Source: a phage. Taken from it: a DNA stretch of 39,474 bases. The position numbers and the translations under genes were made by a program. Below, piece after piece: positions 353 through 39,474 of this stretch (within the stretch, counting starts at the first letter, position 1; each line of letters begins with the position of its first letter). The notes beneath the pieces were generated by a model, which saw only the letters and a program-made list of their open reading frames with translations, searched no databases and was not told where the DNA came from. The stretch lies in the sequence record PZ618369.1; one strand, written 5' to 3'.

Positions 353-405
353 CTGGGTCCTTAAGGTAGGGACGATGAGTTTTGGACCAAAAGTTTGAGA
401 CCACA

Positions 406-600
406 TCTCACAGTTCAAGAACCTCAAGTCTCCCCATAGGCCTCCTTCAGTCCAGACCAAAGGCCATACCCCAGTCTATCATAAGGTTGGACAGATGGTC
501 AATACTTCAGGTCAACGATAGGTCATGACGATAGGTGGTGGTGGAGACGATAGGTAGGGACTATGGGTCTGTCTCTGAGTCTCCATCTGTATAACCATAA
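406..600. repeat. putative genome left terminus and direct terminal repeat (extent uncertain)
   Basis: TCTCACAGTT...CCCCATAGG at 406 onward resembles the T7 left-end sequence TCTCACAGTGTACGG...CCCCCATAGGGGG as I recall it; followed by CTCTGAGTCTCCATCTGT similar to the end of the T7 terminal repeat. Confidence 0.3.
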
Positions 601-740
601 GTCACTAACCATAGGTCCTACAACCATAGGTCCTACAACCATAGGTCCTACAACCATAGGTCCTACAACCTACAGTCTCAACCATAAGACACCAACACCT
701 ACAGTCATAGACCTACAGTTAATAGACACACAGCTATAGA
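585..740. repeat. tandem short-repeat array: four perfect 15-bp copies of CCATAGGTCCTACAA at 609-668 with degenerate flanking copies
   Basis: read directly from sequence; analogous to the short-repeat array after the left terminal repeat of T7. Confidence 0.8.
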
Positions 741-830
741 CTTAAGGTCAAAGACATGATAGTCAAAGACTATATCCTCTTACACCATGAGGCCGACGAT
801 AGCTTAATCAATATTATTTCAAATTACCTA

Positions 831-861
831 TTGACTATAGGTCTAGACTATGGCCTAATAG
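831..861 (+). promoter_or_regulatory. possible sigma70 early promoter (A1-like), weak -10
   Basis: TTGACT at 831-836; candidate -10 CTAATA/TAATAG 17-19 bp downstream. Confidence 0.3.
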
Positions 862-971
862 CTTCCGTCAACACGACACGGCAACAACCGGATAGTGAAG
901 ACGCCGGGTCATCCCGGTTAAGTAGACAGCCTGATAAGTCATACGAACAACAGGCAGATGACAGAAAGTAG

Positions 972-1008
972 TTGACAAGATGTACCGACTTAAAGTAGTA
1001 TGTACCAC
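972..1008 (+). promoter_or_regulatory. sigma70 early promoter (T7 A3-like)
   Basis: TTGACA at 972-977, TAGTAT 18 bp downstream, followed by GTACCACAT as in T7 A3 as recalled. Confidence 0.55.
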
Positions 1009-1123
1009 ATCGAAACAACAGTGATGACCAACACTGAAATGGTCTACCTGAAGTCCTCTGACTGAAGGGAATGCTCTTTAACAATCTGGATAACTCTTAA
1101 TGTGCGCCGATAGCGACTAACTA

Positions 1124-1178
1124 CAGGGTCTTTGAGTCTACCGCGAGACGGGCTTGACTTGAGCGACTGAAGGCCCTG
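1124..1178 (+). promoter_or_regulatory. imperfect hairpin, candidate RNase III processing site (R0.3-like)
   Basis: arms CAGGGTCTTTGAGTC and GACTGAAGGCCCTG; preceded by GCTCTTTAACAATCTGG, identical to the T7 sequence upstream of gene 0.3 as recalled. Confidence 0.4.
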
Positions 1179-1216
1179 ACTGATAGTCACTACTAACTAA
1201 CTAAAGGATACACATC

Positions 1217-1669
1217 ATGATTTACACTAACGAACCAGCCAACGTCTTCTATGTGCTCGTGTCTGCCGCTCGTGCTGAACATAGCGATACGCAAAACATG
1301 GTACGCCAGTTAGACCTTAAGGCGCTGCTGCAAGCCGAACCTGAATACTACGGCGTACTTGAGTGTACGGGTCTTGAGGGATGCTACCGCGAAGAGGGTC
1401 AGGACGCTGTAAGCACTGAGCGGACCTACCGTGTGCGCTGTGAGAAGCGCGCTCAGGCAATCAACGTGGCTCGTCTGGCCTGTAACGACTTTGAGCAAGA
1501 CTGCGTGATGGTCTACAAGTCTCAGACTCACACGGCTGGACTGATGTTCTGCAAGGGGCTGGACGGCTACAAGACTACACGTCTGAACGGGTCATTCCAG
1601 CAGGTCGATGCGCCTAAAGGTGAATGCTACACGAAAGATGCTGAAGGTCGCTTCTGGGAGGTGGTGTAA
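1217..1669 (+). CDS. 0.3: S-adenosylmethionine hydrolase/lyase (T3-type anti-restriction protein)
   Basis: 150-aa ORF; MIYTNEPANVFYVLVSA...TGLEGCYRE...VRCEKRAQAINVARLACN...CVMVYKSQTHTAGL closely matches recalled T3 SAMase; first gene after the early promoters. Confidence 0.85.
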   Translation: MIYTNEPANVFYVLVSAARAEHSDTQNMVRQLDLKALLQAEPEYYGVLECTGLEGCYREEGQDAVSTERTYRVRCEKRAQAINVARLACNDFEQDCVMVYKSQTHTAGLMFCKGLDGYKTTRLNGSFQQVDAPKGECYTKDAEGRFWEVV

Positions 1670-1896
1670 TGTCTAAGGTCAAAGACGTAGTGTCCTCTCG
1701 CACTCACAAGCTGGCTGAGAGCTGGCTTAGTGTCAGAATTGAGACGGATGTAGATAATTGCAAGTGGGTGACGATAGTCTCTCACATCCACCTAAATCAG
1801 GAGACTCTCCTGCCGCACTGTTACAGCCATGAGTTCACAGACTCTGAGATACTGCGTGACAGTGACTTCCTGAAATACTATGCGAGGTTCCGCTAA
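1669..1896 (+). CDS. hypothetical early protein (75 aa)
   Basis: ORF start overlaps the gene 0.3 stop (TAATG); early-region position. Confidence 0.5.
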   Translation: MSKVKDVVSSRTHKLAESWLSVRIETDVDNCKWVTIVSHIHLNQETLLPHCYSHEFTDSEILRDSDFLKYYARFR

Positions 1897-1897
1897 T

Positions 1898-2023
1898 ATG
1901 TACACGATAAGCTATAGCAGCGAGCAGGCGTTCTACGATGGTCTCGTGGAGCTGATGAAGCGCGGGGCCTGCTACACGGCTAACCACCATGCGCTGACCA
2001 TAACGCTGACAGGTGGATACTAA
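1898..2023 (+). CDS. hypothetical small early protein (41 aa)
   Basis: ATG 2 nt after the preceding stop; hand translation MYTISYSSEQAFYDGLVELMKRGACY...; no homology evidence. Confidence 0.25.
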   Translation: MYTISYSSEQAFYDGLVELMKRGACYTANHHALTITLTGGY

Positions 2024-2046
2024 TAGGTTTACGAGTGCCAGACTAC

Positions 2047-2070
2047 AGGTCCTTTGACTGAAGGGCCTGA
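2047..2070 (+). promoter_or_regulatory. hairpin (9-bp stem, 6-nt loop), candidate RNase III site upstream of gene 0.7
   Basis: CAGGTCCTT-TGACTG-AAGGGCCTG; same sequence family as the element at 1124-1178. Confidence 0.35.
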
Positions 2071-2108
2071 CTGATTGTCACTTAACCACATGAGAAGGAA
2101 ACAACCGT

Positions 2109-2843
2109 ATGAACGCACACGATAAAGTAATCATGAACAACCTTATGTCTCAGCTTCACGCTATCATCTGCGAGGAGTGCTACAAGATTGAAGCCTCTTG
2201 CGCTGGCATAGCAGGTCAGCCACGCTGGAGAGCCTTTGAGATACTGGCACGGGAACATGGTTACAAGCTGTTAGGCTTAGGGCATTTCGCTGCCGCCTTT
2301 GAGCATGAGGACCTTCCGGGATATGCAATCAAGGTGGGCTTTAAGAAGGACGACTCAGGCGCTGCATATGCGGCATTCTGCCGAGAGAATGAGGGAATGG
2401 CTGGACTTCCAGTCATCCATCTTGTCAAGCGATTTAGCAGGGCGTACATGGTGGCTATGGATAAGTACCGCTCACTGGATGAAATTGGCGGGGACTACTG
2501 CCGGGACGGTGAGACCTATGAACAGCGAGTCTTAAACGTGTCGTGGCGTGTAGTAAACGCGGTGATAGACCACTGCGAGATGCCGTCAACCGCGCTGTAT
2601 TGGTGGCTGGATAGTGCGGCCCGCTCTGAGTTCGCTTACTTAGAGGCCCAGTACATTAAAGACCTTGCGCAGACTGCACGTAAGATTCATACGTTCTTCT
2701 ACGGTCTGGCATCGTTCGACACGCACCGGGCTAACGTGATGGTAGATAACAGCGGGCGCTTGATAATCACTGACCCAGTGTCTTGGACTCAGGCAGACCA
2801 TCAAGACGAGTTGCAAGGCATACTCAACACAATAGCTGAGTGA
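2109..2843 (+). CDS. 0.7: serine/threonine protein kinase gp0.7, kinase domain only (244 aa)
   Basis: GLGHFAAAFEHEDLPGYAIKVGFKKDDSGAAYAAFCR matches recalled T7 gp0.7 (GNGHFSAAYSH...[20 protein letters not shown]); about 115 aa shorter than T7 gp0.7. Confidence 0.85.
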   Translation: MNAHDKVIMNNLMSQLHAIICEECYKIEASCAGIAGQPRWRAFEILAREHGYKLLGLGHFAAAFEHEDLPGYAIKVGFKKDDSGAAYAAFCRENEGMAGLPVIHLVKRFSRAYMVAMDKYRSLDEIGGDYCRDGETYEQRVLNVSWRVVNAVIDHCEMPSTALYWWLDSAARSEFAYLEAQYIKDLAQTARKIHTFFYGLASFDTHRANVMVDNSGRLIITDPVSWTQADHQDELQGILNTIAE

Positions 2844-2909
2844 TAGACGAGAGGCCACTACATCTAGTGGTCTCAAAGATTATTTCTCACAACATATAGG
2901 AGCGTCGCC

Positions 2910-3071
2910 ATGAAAGCATTGTTAACTTACATCACAATCATCGCACTCTGGGTTACTGCTGTGGCTACCGATGGCAATGCTGGTCACTGGGGCTGGCTGG
3001 CGGTCGACATCATTATGTCGCCTGTAGGAGTGGTGCGCGGCCTGCTGATTCTCTTCGGGCTTGCGGGATGA
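2910..3071 (+). CDS. small membrane protein (53 aa, two predicted TM segments)
   Basis: hand translation MKALLTYITIIALWVTAVATDG...VVRGLLILFGLAG; RBS TAGGAG upstream; stop overlaps next start (ATGA). Confidence 0.45.
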   Translation: MKALLTYITIIALWVTAVATDGNAGHWGWLAVDIIMSPVGVVRGLLILFGLAG

Positions 3072-3268
3072 TTATGGGCTGGGCACTTCTGGTCATCGGC
3101 TACGGGTTAATACTCGCAGTCCTCACGAAAGACATCGTGAAAGCACGTAAAGTCTACCGCTTCCAGTATGTATCGCTGGGGCGCTGGACTGTACGTCAAC
3201 CTAACGGACGATTCATGCGCAACCTCGCGAACGTCTGGGATATAGCAACTCTTGGGAGCAAACTGTAA
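3068..3268 (+). CDS. small membrane protein (66 aa, N-terminal TM segment)
   Basis: ORF track; N-terminus MIMGWALLVIGYGLILAVL is hydrophobic; translationally coupled to both neighbours. Confidence 0.5.
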   Translation: MIMGWALLVIGYGLILAVLTKDIVKARKVYRFQYVSLGRWTVRQPNGRFMRNLANVWDIATLGSKL

Positions 3269-3594
3269 TGAACAAGGCATACGGGATTAATCTGGTACAC
3301 TCTATGGACGCAGACCTTAATCTGCTTTCAGCACTGGCTACGGGCTACCGTCACGGGACCTCAAGTCACACCATTCGTCAACAGCAGGAGCGCGACCGGG
3401 TGCTACAAGTAAGACTCCGGGCTGAGGGCCATAAGTCCGAGCTGATGTGTCTGGCGTATGGTGGACGACCAATCACCGACGATGGTAAACTTCTGGTCTC
3501 AGGCTGGAAGGCGATAGACCAACGGTCAACCATCAAGCACACGACTCGCGGTGACTTCAGTCATCTTCACGCTAACCCTCTGATATGCAAGTAA
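3268..3594 (+). CDS. hypothetical protein (108 aa)
   Basis: ORF track; start overlaps preceding stop (TAATG); no recognisable motif. Confidence 0.55.
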   Translation: MNKAYGINLVHSMDADLNLLSALATGYRHGTSSHTIRQQQERDRVLQVRLRAEGHKSELMCLAYGGRPITDDGKLLVSGWKAIDQRSTIKHTTRGDFSHLHANPLICK

Positions 3595-3602
3595 TTCTGA
3601 CT

Positions 3603-36412: not shown

Positions 36413-36607
36413 ATGATTGAGTTAGACTTCAAGAATGAGGTCCTTAAAGCCTCTCCTATCGTCGGGACCGCTGCGGCTGATGGTGCCAGTCGGTTCTTCT
36501 TCGGGCTCACACTTAACGAATGGTTCTACGTTGCAGCTATCGCGTACACCGTTGTCCAGATTGGTGTGCTAGTCTATAAAACGATTAAAGGAGGTGGTAA
36601 AACATGA
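36413..36607 (+). CDS. 17.5: class II holin
   Basis: LKASPIVGTAAADGASRFFFGLTLNEWFYVAAIAYTVVQIG matches recalled T7 gp17.5. Confidence 0.85.
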   Translation: MIELDFKNEVLKASPIVGTAAADGASRFFFGLTLNEWFYVAAIAYTVVQIGVLVYKTIKGGGKT

Positions 36608-36867
36608 CGCAGATGGACTTAGAGAAGTTCCTCTTAATGCTGGATACTGAACGTGCTCGACTCATGCTGCAAGACCTGCGGGATGACTCTAAGCGTTCAC
36701 CTCAGCTCTACAACGCCATTGAGAAGCTGCTTGCTCGTCATAACTTTGTGTTAAGCAAGGTGTCTGTTGACGAGAAGACGCTGGCTGATATGGAGGCCCT
36801 GAACGCAGAGTACGATAAGGTGCTTTCAGCGACTGAGGATAATGACACAGGGTATGGCGTTCAATAA
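36604..36867 (+). CDS. 18: terminase small subunit
   Basis: synteny and size (87 aa vs 89 in T7). Confidence 0.8.
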   Translation: MTQMDLEKFLLMLDTERARLMLQDLRDDSKRSPQLYNAIEKLLARHNFVLSKVSVDEKTLADMEALNAEYDKVLSATEDNDTGYGVQ

Positions 36868-36968: not shown

Positions 36969-37418
36969 ATGCTCGAATTTTTAAAGAGAGCGGCTCCGTG
37001 GTTACTTGCAGCAGTGATGTTTGCTGGTGGCTACCACACCGCTAACAATAAGTGGGAGGCTAAGGTCAATGCAGAATACACCTCGAATCTTAAGGCATCG
37101 GAAGATACAAGGCTTGCTGTCCAAGCTGAAGTCAACAAAGTGTCCAAACGGTTTCAGGACGAAATGTCCTCGTTGGAAGGCAGCACTGATAGGATTATTG
37201 CTGACCTTCAGTCTGACAATAAGCGGTTGCGCGTCCGAGTCAAACCAACGAGTGGAACCACGCAAAGTGACGGTCGATGCATCATTGATGGTTACGCCGA
37301 ACTTGACGAACGAGATGCTAAACGTCTTATCGCCATCGGAGTGAAAGGAGACAAGTGGATTAAGGCCCTTCAGGACACTGTGAGAGCCTTGCAGCAAGAT
37401 AAGGAGGTGACGCATTGA
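36969..37418 (+). CDS. 18.5: i-spanin (Rz-like)
   Basis: N-terminal TM segment ([11 protein letters not shown]), coiled-coil-like body, gene 18.5 position, embedded lipoprotein ORF. Confidence 0.8.
37069..37344 (+). CDS. 18.7: o-spanin (Rz1-like lipoprotein) embedded in the +1 frame of the i-spanin gene
   Basis: [25 protein letters not shown]...[17 protein letters not shown] matches recalled T7 gp18.7 ([25 protein letters not shown]...SLMVEPNLTTEMLNV); lipobox LTISGC; start codon uncertain. Confidence 0.7.
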   Translation: MQNTPRILRHRKIQGLLSKLKSTKCPNGFRTKCPRWKAALIGLLLTFSLTISGCASESNQRVEPRKVTVDASLMVTPNLTNEMLNVLSPSE

Positions 37419-39178
37419 GTAACGATTTAGTGGCGCGTCAGGCGCTAATGACTGCCCGTATGAAGGCAGACTTCGTGTTCTTCCTGTTCGTCCTGTGGAA
37501 AGCTCTGTCACTCCCAGTCCCGACTCGCTGTCAGATTGACATGGCGAAGAAGCTATCGGCTGGGGACAGCAGGCGCTTCATCCTGCAGGCGTTCCGTGGT
37601 ATCGGGAAGTCCTTCATTACATGTGCCTTCGTGGTCTGGAAGCTATGGAACAACCCAGACTTGAAGTTCATGATTGTGTCGGCCTCAAAGGAACGAGCCG
37701 ATGCGAACTCCATCTTCATCAAGCGAATCATCGACCTCATGCCACAGCTTCAGGAACTCAAACCTAAGCAGGGACAGCGAGATGCGGTTATCAGCTTCGA
37801 TGTTGGGCCAGCAAAGCCAGACCACTCACCTTCGGTTAAGTCCGTTGGTATCACTGGTCAGTTGACTGGTAGTCGTGCTGACATCCTTATTGCAGATGAC
37901 GTTGAGGTTCCAAACAACTCAGCGACTCAGGCTGCGCGAGACCGACTGTCAGAGCTTGTGAAAGAGTTCGACGCTATTCTGAAGCCGGGAGGTACAATCA
38001 TCTATCTGGGTACTCCTCAGAACGAGATGACCCTGTATCGTGAGTTGGAAGGCCGCGGGTACACCACTACTATCTGGCCCGCTCGTTATCCACGCGACAG
38101 GAAGGACTGGCAGTCTTACGGCGACCGTCTGGCTCCTATGCTTCAGGCAGAGCTTGAAGAGGACCCTGAGTCCTTCTACTGGCGTCCAACAGATGAGGTA
38201 CGATTCGAGGATACGGACCTGAAGGAACGTGAGCTGTCATACGGTAAAGCTGGCTTCGCTCTACAGTTCATGCTTAACCCGAACCTGAGTGATGCTGAGA
38301 AGTATCCTCTGAAGCTCCGTGACCTTATCGTAGCCGACTTGGACCCAGAGTCCAGCCCAATGGTCTACCAATGGTTGCCAAACACTCAGAACAAGCGTGA
38401 GGACGTTCCTAACGTTGGACTCATGGGTGACTCATACCACACGTATCAGACTGTAGGTTCTGCCTTCAGCTCGTACACCCAGAAGATTCTGGTCATTGAC
38501 CCTAGTGGTCGTGGTAAGGATGAAACTGGTTATGCGGTACTGTACCAGCTCAACGGCTACATCTTCGCTATGGAAGTTGGTGGTATGCGTGGTGGATATG
38601 AAGACTCTACGCTGGAAGCCTTGGCTAAGATTGGTCGTAAGTGGAAGGTCAACGAATACGTCATTGAGGGTAACTTCGGTGATGGTATGTACCTTGAGCT
38701 GTTCAAGCCTGTAGCGGCCCGTATCCATCCAGCGGCTGTAACTGAAGTGAAGAGTAAGGGTCAGAAAGAACTACGCATCTGTGACGTTCTGGAGCCTATC
38801 ATGGGGTCTCACCGTCTTATCGTCAACGCTGCTGCTATCGTCCAAGACTACCAGACAGCCTCTGATAAGGATGGTGTGCGTAACCATATCTACTCTCTCT
38901 TCTATCAGATGACCCGTATCTCTCGTGAACGTGGAGCCTTGGCACATGATGACCGACTTGATGCGCTGGCTATCGGTGTACAGTTCTTCGTTGAGTCTAT
39001 GGCTAAGGATGCCAACAAAGGTGAACGTGAAGTCACTGAGGAGTGGCTGGAGGAACAGATGGAGAACCCACGGAAAGGCTTCGAGTCCATCCACACTGAG
39101 TTCTGGGACAATGGGGTCAGGGTAACTCACGATACGGACGACGAGCTTGGATTAGGGTCATACGTTACGTTCCACTAG
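37415..39178 (+). CDS. 19: terminase large subunit
   Basis: 587 aa vs 586 in T7; synteny; last large gene before the right end. Confidence 0.95.
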
Positions 39179-39275
39179 CTGAATGAATAACTATAGGAGA
39201 AAGCTGCATGAATACGCAGTTAGTACCCTATAGTTACTACCAGTCTAACCTACTGTTTTACAAGGAGTTTGGACT

Positions 39276-39294
39276 TAACTATCACTATAGGGAA
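39276..39294 (+). promoter_or_regulatory. phage RNAP promoter (right-end phiOR-type), TTAACTATCACTATAGGGAAGA
   Basis: consensus match, +1 G near 39290; downstream of gene 19. Confidence 0.7.
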
Positions 39295-39474
39295 GACCCC
39301 CGGTTACTTATAGTATTACTGTAGTGAATATACATATGCAGACTTTATGCAAGACCTTAGGAGGCAGACTCCGAGTTCTTACCTAAGGCTTGCACCGATG
39401 GAAGGAGGGTGATATTAATCATAATCCCTCCAATACAGATAGTAAAGACCATAGATACAGGAGGTATGTAGCAT

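Follow-up and report, generated by a model that had tools for sequence, protein, structure and literature searches.

Terminal repeats in the T7 group

Among phages of the T7 group, the exact direct terminal repeats (DTRs) measure 160 b in T7 and 231 b in T3, and lie between gene 19.5 and the early region. The mechanism by which the repeat is duplicated is not settled, even in T7. A general statement ascribes the duplication to DNA synthesis at staggered nicks, and the same work points out that DTR phages get an arbitrary first base from assemblers (the PhageTerm paper, PMC5557969). Class II signals of T7 RNA polymerase (HATCTGTT, as in CJ, PTH and VSV) strictly require a seven-base core preceded by A, C or T, and any change in that core has been reported to abolish the signal for this polymerase. 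The phage polymerase is said to pause at the concatemer junction site (CJ), interacting with gp18/gp19 to start maturation (PMC3276506).

The K1F group (Kayfunavirus) has been placed among the short-DTR packagers by terminase phylogeny (PMC5582158). Exact DTR lengths, computed from records carrying both ends, are 178 b in K1F and EcoDS1, 179 b in Bia, Emlis and Midid, 183 b in yong1 and 184 b in SH3, so that the group spans 178–184 b with 179 b as the commonest value. The ends of SH3 come from run-off sequencing on phage DNA, in a study where the K1F repeat is quoted as 179 bp (PMC4925675), and the Penshu1 and Peacock records hold PhageTerm-derived repeats of 179 b each. Annotated lengths are 165 and 197 b in GA2A and 183 b in CR44b, and in IMG/VR contigs one copy stands at base 1 and another 179–196 b before the fetched stretch ends. 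The GA2A record, besides its unequal annotated repeats, has an internal duplication at its right end.

A K1F-like genome in unit-length form

The window considered here, that is the whole 39,474-b stretch of record PZ618369.1, is the complete genome of a K1F-like phage (Kayfunavirus, Studiervirinae, T7 group) in a unit-length assembly. Its positions 1–1300 matched 389 phage records with top identities of 92–95%, and positions 1200–26000 aligned with Kayfunavirus genomes at 91–95% identity across 86–92% of the query; the top matches of this longer query mostly bear Klebsiella, Escherichia and Salmonella phage names, with one Enterococcus name, and no near-identical copy of the window was found among the matches listed. 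The large ORFs of the + strand follow the gene order of T7, and a single-subunit RNA polymerase is encoded together with a small and a large terminase subunit. The ATG of gene 19.5 starts at base 1, and base 39474 is the one directly before that ATG.

When the last 400 b are joined to the first 420 b, the sequence obtained runs collinear with EcoDS1 and SH3 at their right ends (91–92% identity) and, at a lower identity of 82–87%, with K1F and GA2A at theirs, and no break was found at the join in the alignments with these four right ends. Gene 19.5 itself is collinear across the join with its counterparts in EcoDS1, SH3 and K1F. A second copy of the repeat, even a diverged one, was not found within the 39,474-b window. 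The single repeat copy and the collinear end-to-start join therefore identify the window as a unit-length assembly that has been circularised and rotated, and whose natural linear order is different. One internal copy is present because assemblers merge the two copies and close the circle, so that 160–800 has the form of a concatemer junction: right arm, one repeat, left arm. The parts of this junction are as follows.

1–159, + strand: gene 19.5 homologue of 52 aa, last gene of the right arm (phrog_2193, E = 9e-24)
160–405, no strand: non-coding right-arm region adjoining the repeat, 79% conserved against 7 relatives
406–584, + strand: putative direct terminal repeat, single collapsed copy, 179 b, placed by homology, the right edge to within about 6 b on either side
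585–591, + strand: junction motif ATCTGTA directly after the repeat, counterpart of the T7/T3 ATCTGTT class II pause site (CJ)
592–800, no strand: non-coding part of the left arm with short repeats, corresponding to the series of repeats that T7 has right of its left-hand repeat

On the basis of sequence comparison, it is highly probable that 406–584 represents a single collapsed copy of the 179-bp exact DTR of a K1F-like phage, seen here in its concatemer-junction form. The predicted virion DNA would run from 406, through one full turn, to 584, for a length of 39,474 + 179 = 39,653 bp. An earlier note, made from the sequence alone, had proposed a physical genome terminus near 406 and a terminal repeat represented once and collapsed in the assembly, and both proposals agree with what the comparison indicates: 406 corresponds to base 1 of linear relatives, its upstream flank is the one that precedes their right-hand copy, a single copy is present, and the join is collinear with theirs. 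The limits proposed at the time, 398–600, do contain the repeat, but are slightly generous.

The left edge of the repeat

The sequence TCTCACAGTTCAAGAACCTCAAGTCTCCCCATAGG occupies 406–440 on the + strand, where it has its single occurrence with 3 mismatches allowed, and all 35 of its bases are identical to bases 1–35 of K1F, EcoDS1 and SH3. The wider segment 406–600 matched 224 phage records, 169 of them over at least 80% of its length, with BLAST local identities of 85.1–94.2% among the best 60 of the 224 matches and lower values further down. Among the matches listed, the homologue of 406 is base 1–3 in at least 10 distinct phages.

Records starting at the 406 homologue (base 1–3): SH3, EcoDS1, GA2A, yong1, IMEP24, HC13, CR44b, Penshu1, YZ1, Peacock

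Three more of the listed records, EcoIv41_Bia, EcoIv1_Emlis and EcoIv10b_Midid, are reversed and have this homologue as their last base, which brings the GenBank relatives that begin or end there to at least 13. Where a listed record matches in two places, these are its two ends, and the remaining matching records hold it at arbitrary internal positions, like the window. The string TCTCACAG... is found at base 1 of K1F, EcoDS1, SH3, yong1, Bia, Emlis, Midid, Penshu1 and Peacock, and all seven K1F-group records with an exact repeat begin TCTCACAGTTCAAGAACCTCAA. On the edge's other side, AAAGTTTGAGACCACA (window 390–405) precedes the right-hand copy in 7/7 relatives, and the 40 b left of 406 (366–405) agree with what K1F, EcoDS1 and SH3 have ahead of their right-hand copy. 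The two marks of the left boundary of a Kayfunavirus DTR, base 1 of the relatives and the shared upstream flank, thus meet at 405|406.

Conservation is highest across this predicted cut.

380–439, no strand: conserved block across the cut, 100% identical in 7/7 relatives with known ends over three consecutive 20-nt bins

This block is the most conserved stretch of the entire non-coding region in comparison with the 7 relatives, and includes a small dyad, TGAGA (396–400)–CCACA–TCTCA (406–410), at a place where T7 has TGAG-N7-CTCA. Judging from the sequence, it is likely to be a recognition or cleavage site for the formation of the left end.

The right edge and the length of the repeat

Positions 573–590 read CTCTGAGTCTCCATCTGT, and the boundary takes the form ...GAGTCTCC|ATCTGTATAACCAT at 584|585, or ...GTCTCTGAGTCTCC|ATCTGTATAACCAT with a longer left context. 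The repeat ends directly before ATCTGT in EcoDS1, Bia, Emlis, Midid, yong1, T7 and T3, and since the ATCTGT at window 585 is in register with that of the relatives, the boundary is placed at 584|585 and the repeat at 406–584, with 406 and 584 corresponding by homology to the first and last bases of virion DNA. Position 584 lies directly before ATCTGT, and left-arm sequence comes next: what stands right of about 584 matches the sequence that follows the left-hand copy in relatives. Two exact repeats deviate from this rule, that of K1F, which is one base shorter than the ATCTGT boundary, and that of SH3 (184 b), which runs four bases beyond it and ends ...TATCT|GT; part of the 178–184 spread is probably a matter of how depositors called the ends. 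Conservation against 7 relatives with known ends amounts to 95% at 406–500, 75% at 501–545 and 93% at 546–591.

Comparison with Kayfunavirus, T7 and T3 repeats

The repeats of Kayfunavirus are orthologous to the one in the window, share its flanks on both sides and belong to the same length class, and in K1F (178–179 bp), EcoDS1 (178 bp), SH3 (183–184 bp) and Penshu1 and Peacock (179 bp) ATCTGTAT comes after the repeat, as in the window. Global identity over the whole repeat is 87–89% in the K1F group, with 89% to SH3 and 88% to Penshu1 and Peacock, which relates the window to repeats with ends established on virion DNA or by read-start statistics. The differences between the repeats are allelic only and are concentrated at 520–539 (66% conserved). 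Outside the repeat, the window differs by the tandem array on its right (a 15-b unit, 4.3 times, in the window), and by having one internal copy, due to assembly, in contrast to the copies at both ends of linear Kayfunavirus records. At the sequence level, then, 406–584 has every property by which a Kayfunavirus DTR is recognised. It is an already known, ordinary feature, since its orthologues are annotated in many GenBank records, and by itself opens no new biological question.

The relation with T7 and T3 is more distant. The first bases of T7 are TCTCACAGTGTACGGACCTAAAGTTCCCCCATAGGGGG, and the last ones of its 160-b repeat are ...GTGTCTCTCTGTGTCCCT, after which comes ATCTGT. The earlier note had likened the sequence at 406 to the left end of T7, whose start it gave correctly, and this likeness is borne out over the first 35 b, with 28 matches per 38 aligned columns for T7 (30 for T3); it had also likened the end of the segment to that of the T7 repeat, and the last bases are indeed shared, with ATCTGT coming next in both. 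The alignment with the T7 and T3 repeats that it had suggested confirms the likeness of the edges but does not extend it to the whole repeat, since identity drops there to 60% with T7 and 58% with T3, and the interior is not recognisably conserved. The shared first bases can be written TCTCAYAGT...CCCCATAG, and the columns that are invariant when T7, T3 and the K1F group are compared lie clustered at the two edges of the repeat (TCTCA.AGT, CCCCATAG, and G.GT then T.GT, the T.GT column being a remnant of the ATCTGT motif, where T3 is shifted in the multiple comparison). The T7 resemblance is thus genuine but confined to the edges, and the K1F group is the proper comparison. Beyond the repeat, T7 and T3 share with the window its position between gene 19.5 and the early region, short-repeat arrays on both sides, a homologous gp18/gp19 terminase and a phiOR-type promoter upstream. 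A phiOL promoter is annotated in T7 and T3, whereas no phage-polymerase promoter, and thus no phiOL equivalent, was found right of the repeat in 592–3600 of the window, the first one being at 3601.

Genes, promoters and arrays on both sides

The repeat has gene 19.5 on its left, and on its right the early promoters and the first early gene. Matches to the phage-promoter consensus CTAAACTATCACTATAGGR number 10, all on the + strand, and the last of them lies just upstream of the end-to-start join.

39274–39292, + strand: phiOR equivalent, last phage-RNA-polymerase promoter, CTTAACTATCACTATAGGG, 1 of the 10 consensus matches

Its place upstream of gene 19.5 is that of phiOR in EcoDS1, T7 and T3, and by its orientation it reads through gene 19.5 towards the repeat. 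As for host-type signals, a sigma-70 and terminator scan of 1–1400 gave one strong promoter-like site, at 972–1001 (TTGACA, an 18-nt spacer and TAGTAT), and no convincing terminator in the repeat, and no Rfam family reached its gathering score anywhere in the window.

Short motifs of the CCWWHVG type are abundant around the repeat, with 23–28 per kb over 160–800 against about 4 per kb elsewhere, a 6–8-fold excess; 160–405, which corresponds to the repeat-rich region on the left of T7's concatemer junction, has 6 on the + strand and 5 on the - strand. The left arm holds in addition a perfect tandem array.

607–670, no strand: 15-b unit AACCATAGGTCCTAC, 4.3 copies, just right of the repeat

The array region (600–659) shows the lowest conservation within the left arm, 41–54% against 7 relatives. 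GA2A and SH3 have other unit sequences and copy numbers at the equivalent place, and the array can thus be said to turn over quickly.

Three ORFs that overlap the repeat (382–528, 563–739 and, on the minus strand, 523–657) are regarded as spurious, because conservation in this region tracks DNA sites and not codons; the second of them, with its TIGP repeats, is probably a mere reading of the 15-b tandem array. In many related records, hypothetical proteins are annotated across the non-coding repeat.

The first early gene (1217–1669, 150 aa) belongs to phrog_2226, labelled 'SAM-dependent methyltransferase' in PHROGs, and is presumably of the SAM-degrading type of T3 gene 0.3. The anti-restriction module is swapped in comparison with the closest reference phages. 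The 1217–1669 product has no similarity to the 169-aa 'antirestriction protein' found at the equivalent position in SH3, and the K1F gene at that same position has an equal length (169 aa) and an identical product name.

Terminase and a possible course of maturation

Both subunits of a T7-type terminase, gp18 and gp19, are encoded in the window.

36604–36867, + strand: small terminase subunit, gp18 homologue (phrog_1351, E = 1.1e-34)
37415–39178, + strand: large terminase subunit, gp19 homologue (phrog_38, E = 4e-131)

The large subunit matches two solved chains, 8dgc ('Terminase, large subunit', E = 2e-247) and 4bij ('DNA MATURASE B', E = 3e-216), both of which we take to be the large terminase of T7. 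By analogy, the gp19 homologue is expected to be the enzyme that cuts at the repeat boundaries. If the model of T7 and T3 applies, replication would produce head-to-tail concatemers in which neighbouring genomes share one copy of the repeat, and the gp18/gp19 terminase would recognise this junction. Transcription from the promoter at 39274 would proceed through gene 19.5 and the repeat, with a polymerase pause at the ATCTGT just past it; the terminase would then cut at both 405|406 and 584|585, and DNA synthesis would duplicate the repeat, leaving each packaged genome with a copy at both ends.

A group-specific junction motif

The site equivalent to 585–591 in EcoDS1 (bases 177–184) is annotated 'concatemeric junction', and ATCTGTA(T) is found at the junction in all 11 K1F-group sequences examined, none of which has ATCTGTT there. 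In comparison with the CJ signal of T7, the window shares the first 6 of the 7 core bases, the preceding C and the exact place, but the seventh base is A instead of T (C-ATCTGTA), and the strict core ATCTGTT preceded by A, C or T is thus absent at 585–591. The location is otherwise that of a class II signal: at the repeat's right edge, on the transcribed strand and with a phage promoter upstream. With ATCTGTA in place of the required ATCTGTT, the pause step is consequently not assured for the K1F group.

The distribution of the motif follows a strand pattern. In the window and three complete Kayfunavirus relatives, ATCTGTA occurs on the + strand at the repeat boundary only (position 180 in the three relatives, reverse-complemented into genome-start orientation), and elsewhere in these four genomes there are 0 other sites on the + strand versus 13 on the - strand, while ATCTGTT has 2 sites in each of the four, inside genes and on the + strand. 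This pattern suggests a signal for the junction or for pausing that is specific to the group, an idea to be treated as a lead only, because of the small counts and the relatedness of the genomes.

A hairpin left of the repeat

A further element of the right arm lies between gene 19.5 and the repeat.

193–235, no strand: inverted repeat with perfectly matching 12-bp arms, CTAAGGTCAGTA / TACTGACCTTAG, and a 19-nt spacer, its centre 192 b left of the repeat

Folded as DNA, it reaches -11.3 kcal/mol (z = -3.6). Its arms are conserved in K1F, EcoDS1 and SH3, where they are centred 160–184 b left of the repeat; the loop differs in K1F and is nearly identical in EcoDS1. In T7, an imperfect palindrome has its centre near 39,588, which is about 190 b to the left of the right-hand repeat copy, so that the two elements are unrelated in sequence and notable for their match in distance (about 190 b). 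Chung, Nardone and Hinkle are said to have described (J Mol Biol, 1990) a hairpin end that forms at this T7 palindrome on concatemers and that was proposed as a processing intermediate, and the palindrome was reportedly also proposed to prime duplication of the repeat. By analogy, 193–235 may possibly be a hairpin for concatemer processing, the counterpart of the T7 hairpin end; an equally simple reading is that it could be a stem-loop of the transcript after gene 19.5.

Could both elements belong together? That in the K1F group ATCTGTA is read as a pause by the group's own polymerase and that the 193–235 hairpin is the counterpart of the T7 palindrome is a tentative combined proposal, and a somewhat doubtful one. 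If true, the specificity of the pause signal would have co-evolved with the polymerase, and the conserved functional unit in T7-like maturation would be a geometry (hairpin, about 190 b, repeat, pause site) and not a sequence. The group-specific motif and the conserved hairpin are in this respect mildly interesting, as tests of how far the T7 maturation model reaches.

Other readings of the locus

The position of the right edge is the point on which a different reading has some ground. The left end could be at 406 with the right edge elsewhere, for instance at 583 as in K1F or at 588–590 as in SH3, and the length would then not be 179. The 178–184 range of exact DTRs in relatives leaves room for this, as do the annotated lengths of GA2A (165/197) and CR44b (183) and the 179–196 suggested by the IMG/VR loci. 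Against it, seven independent records, T7 and T3 included, break exactly before ATCTGT, 179 is the value in three long-read-era assemblies and two PhageTerm calls, and outliers like GA2A show an internal duplication or inconsistent annotation; a displaced right edge is on balance unlikely.

Doubts about the end as such carry much less weight. That the phage packages by headful or in some otherwise permuted way, with no fixed end at 406 and the segment surviving as a conserved non-coding relic, is very improbable: nothing positive speaks for it, apart from the fact that the end in PZ618369.1 is placed by homology, and it would have to be reconciled with a large terminase close to solved large-terminase chains (E = 2e-247), with the K1F group's position beside short-DTR packagers in the terminase phylogeny (PMC5582158), with 60 b around the cut that are 100% conserved, as expected for a site in use, and with relatives of measured ends whose repeats are 87–89% identical globally (SH3 89%). 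A chance match to the T7 end in a non-coding region of balanced AT/GC content could appeal to the global identity of just 58–60% over the whole T7 and T3 repeats. None of 100 shuffles, however, gave the 406–440 35-mer with 3 mismatches allowed, and the 224 phage records matched, 169 of them over at least 80% of the segment, and the clustering of T7/T3/K1F-invariant columns at both repeat edges led us to reject chance, whose probability is practically negligible.

Annotation and related records

With the collapsed 179-bp DTR as the preferred reading, the record should be re-oriented to start at 406, with the 179 b of 406–584 added at the right end to give 39,653 bp, and the short ORFs called across 380–740 should not be annotated as genes. 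The exact ends and the junction sequence are of use for rebooting or engineering the phage from synthetic DNA.

Among related database records, MT350292.1, PV615262.1 and KT990215.1 show oddities. The records named 'Enterococcus phage EFA-1' and 'Acinetobacter phage vB_Aba_01KA' contain Kayfunavirus genomes that are 88–92% identical to the window, and their host labels are for this reason doubtful.
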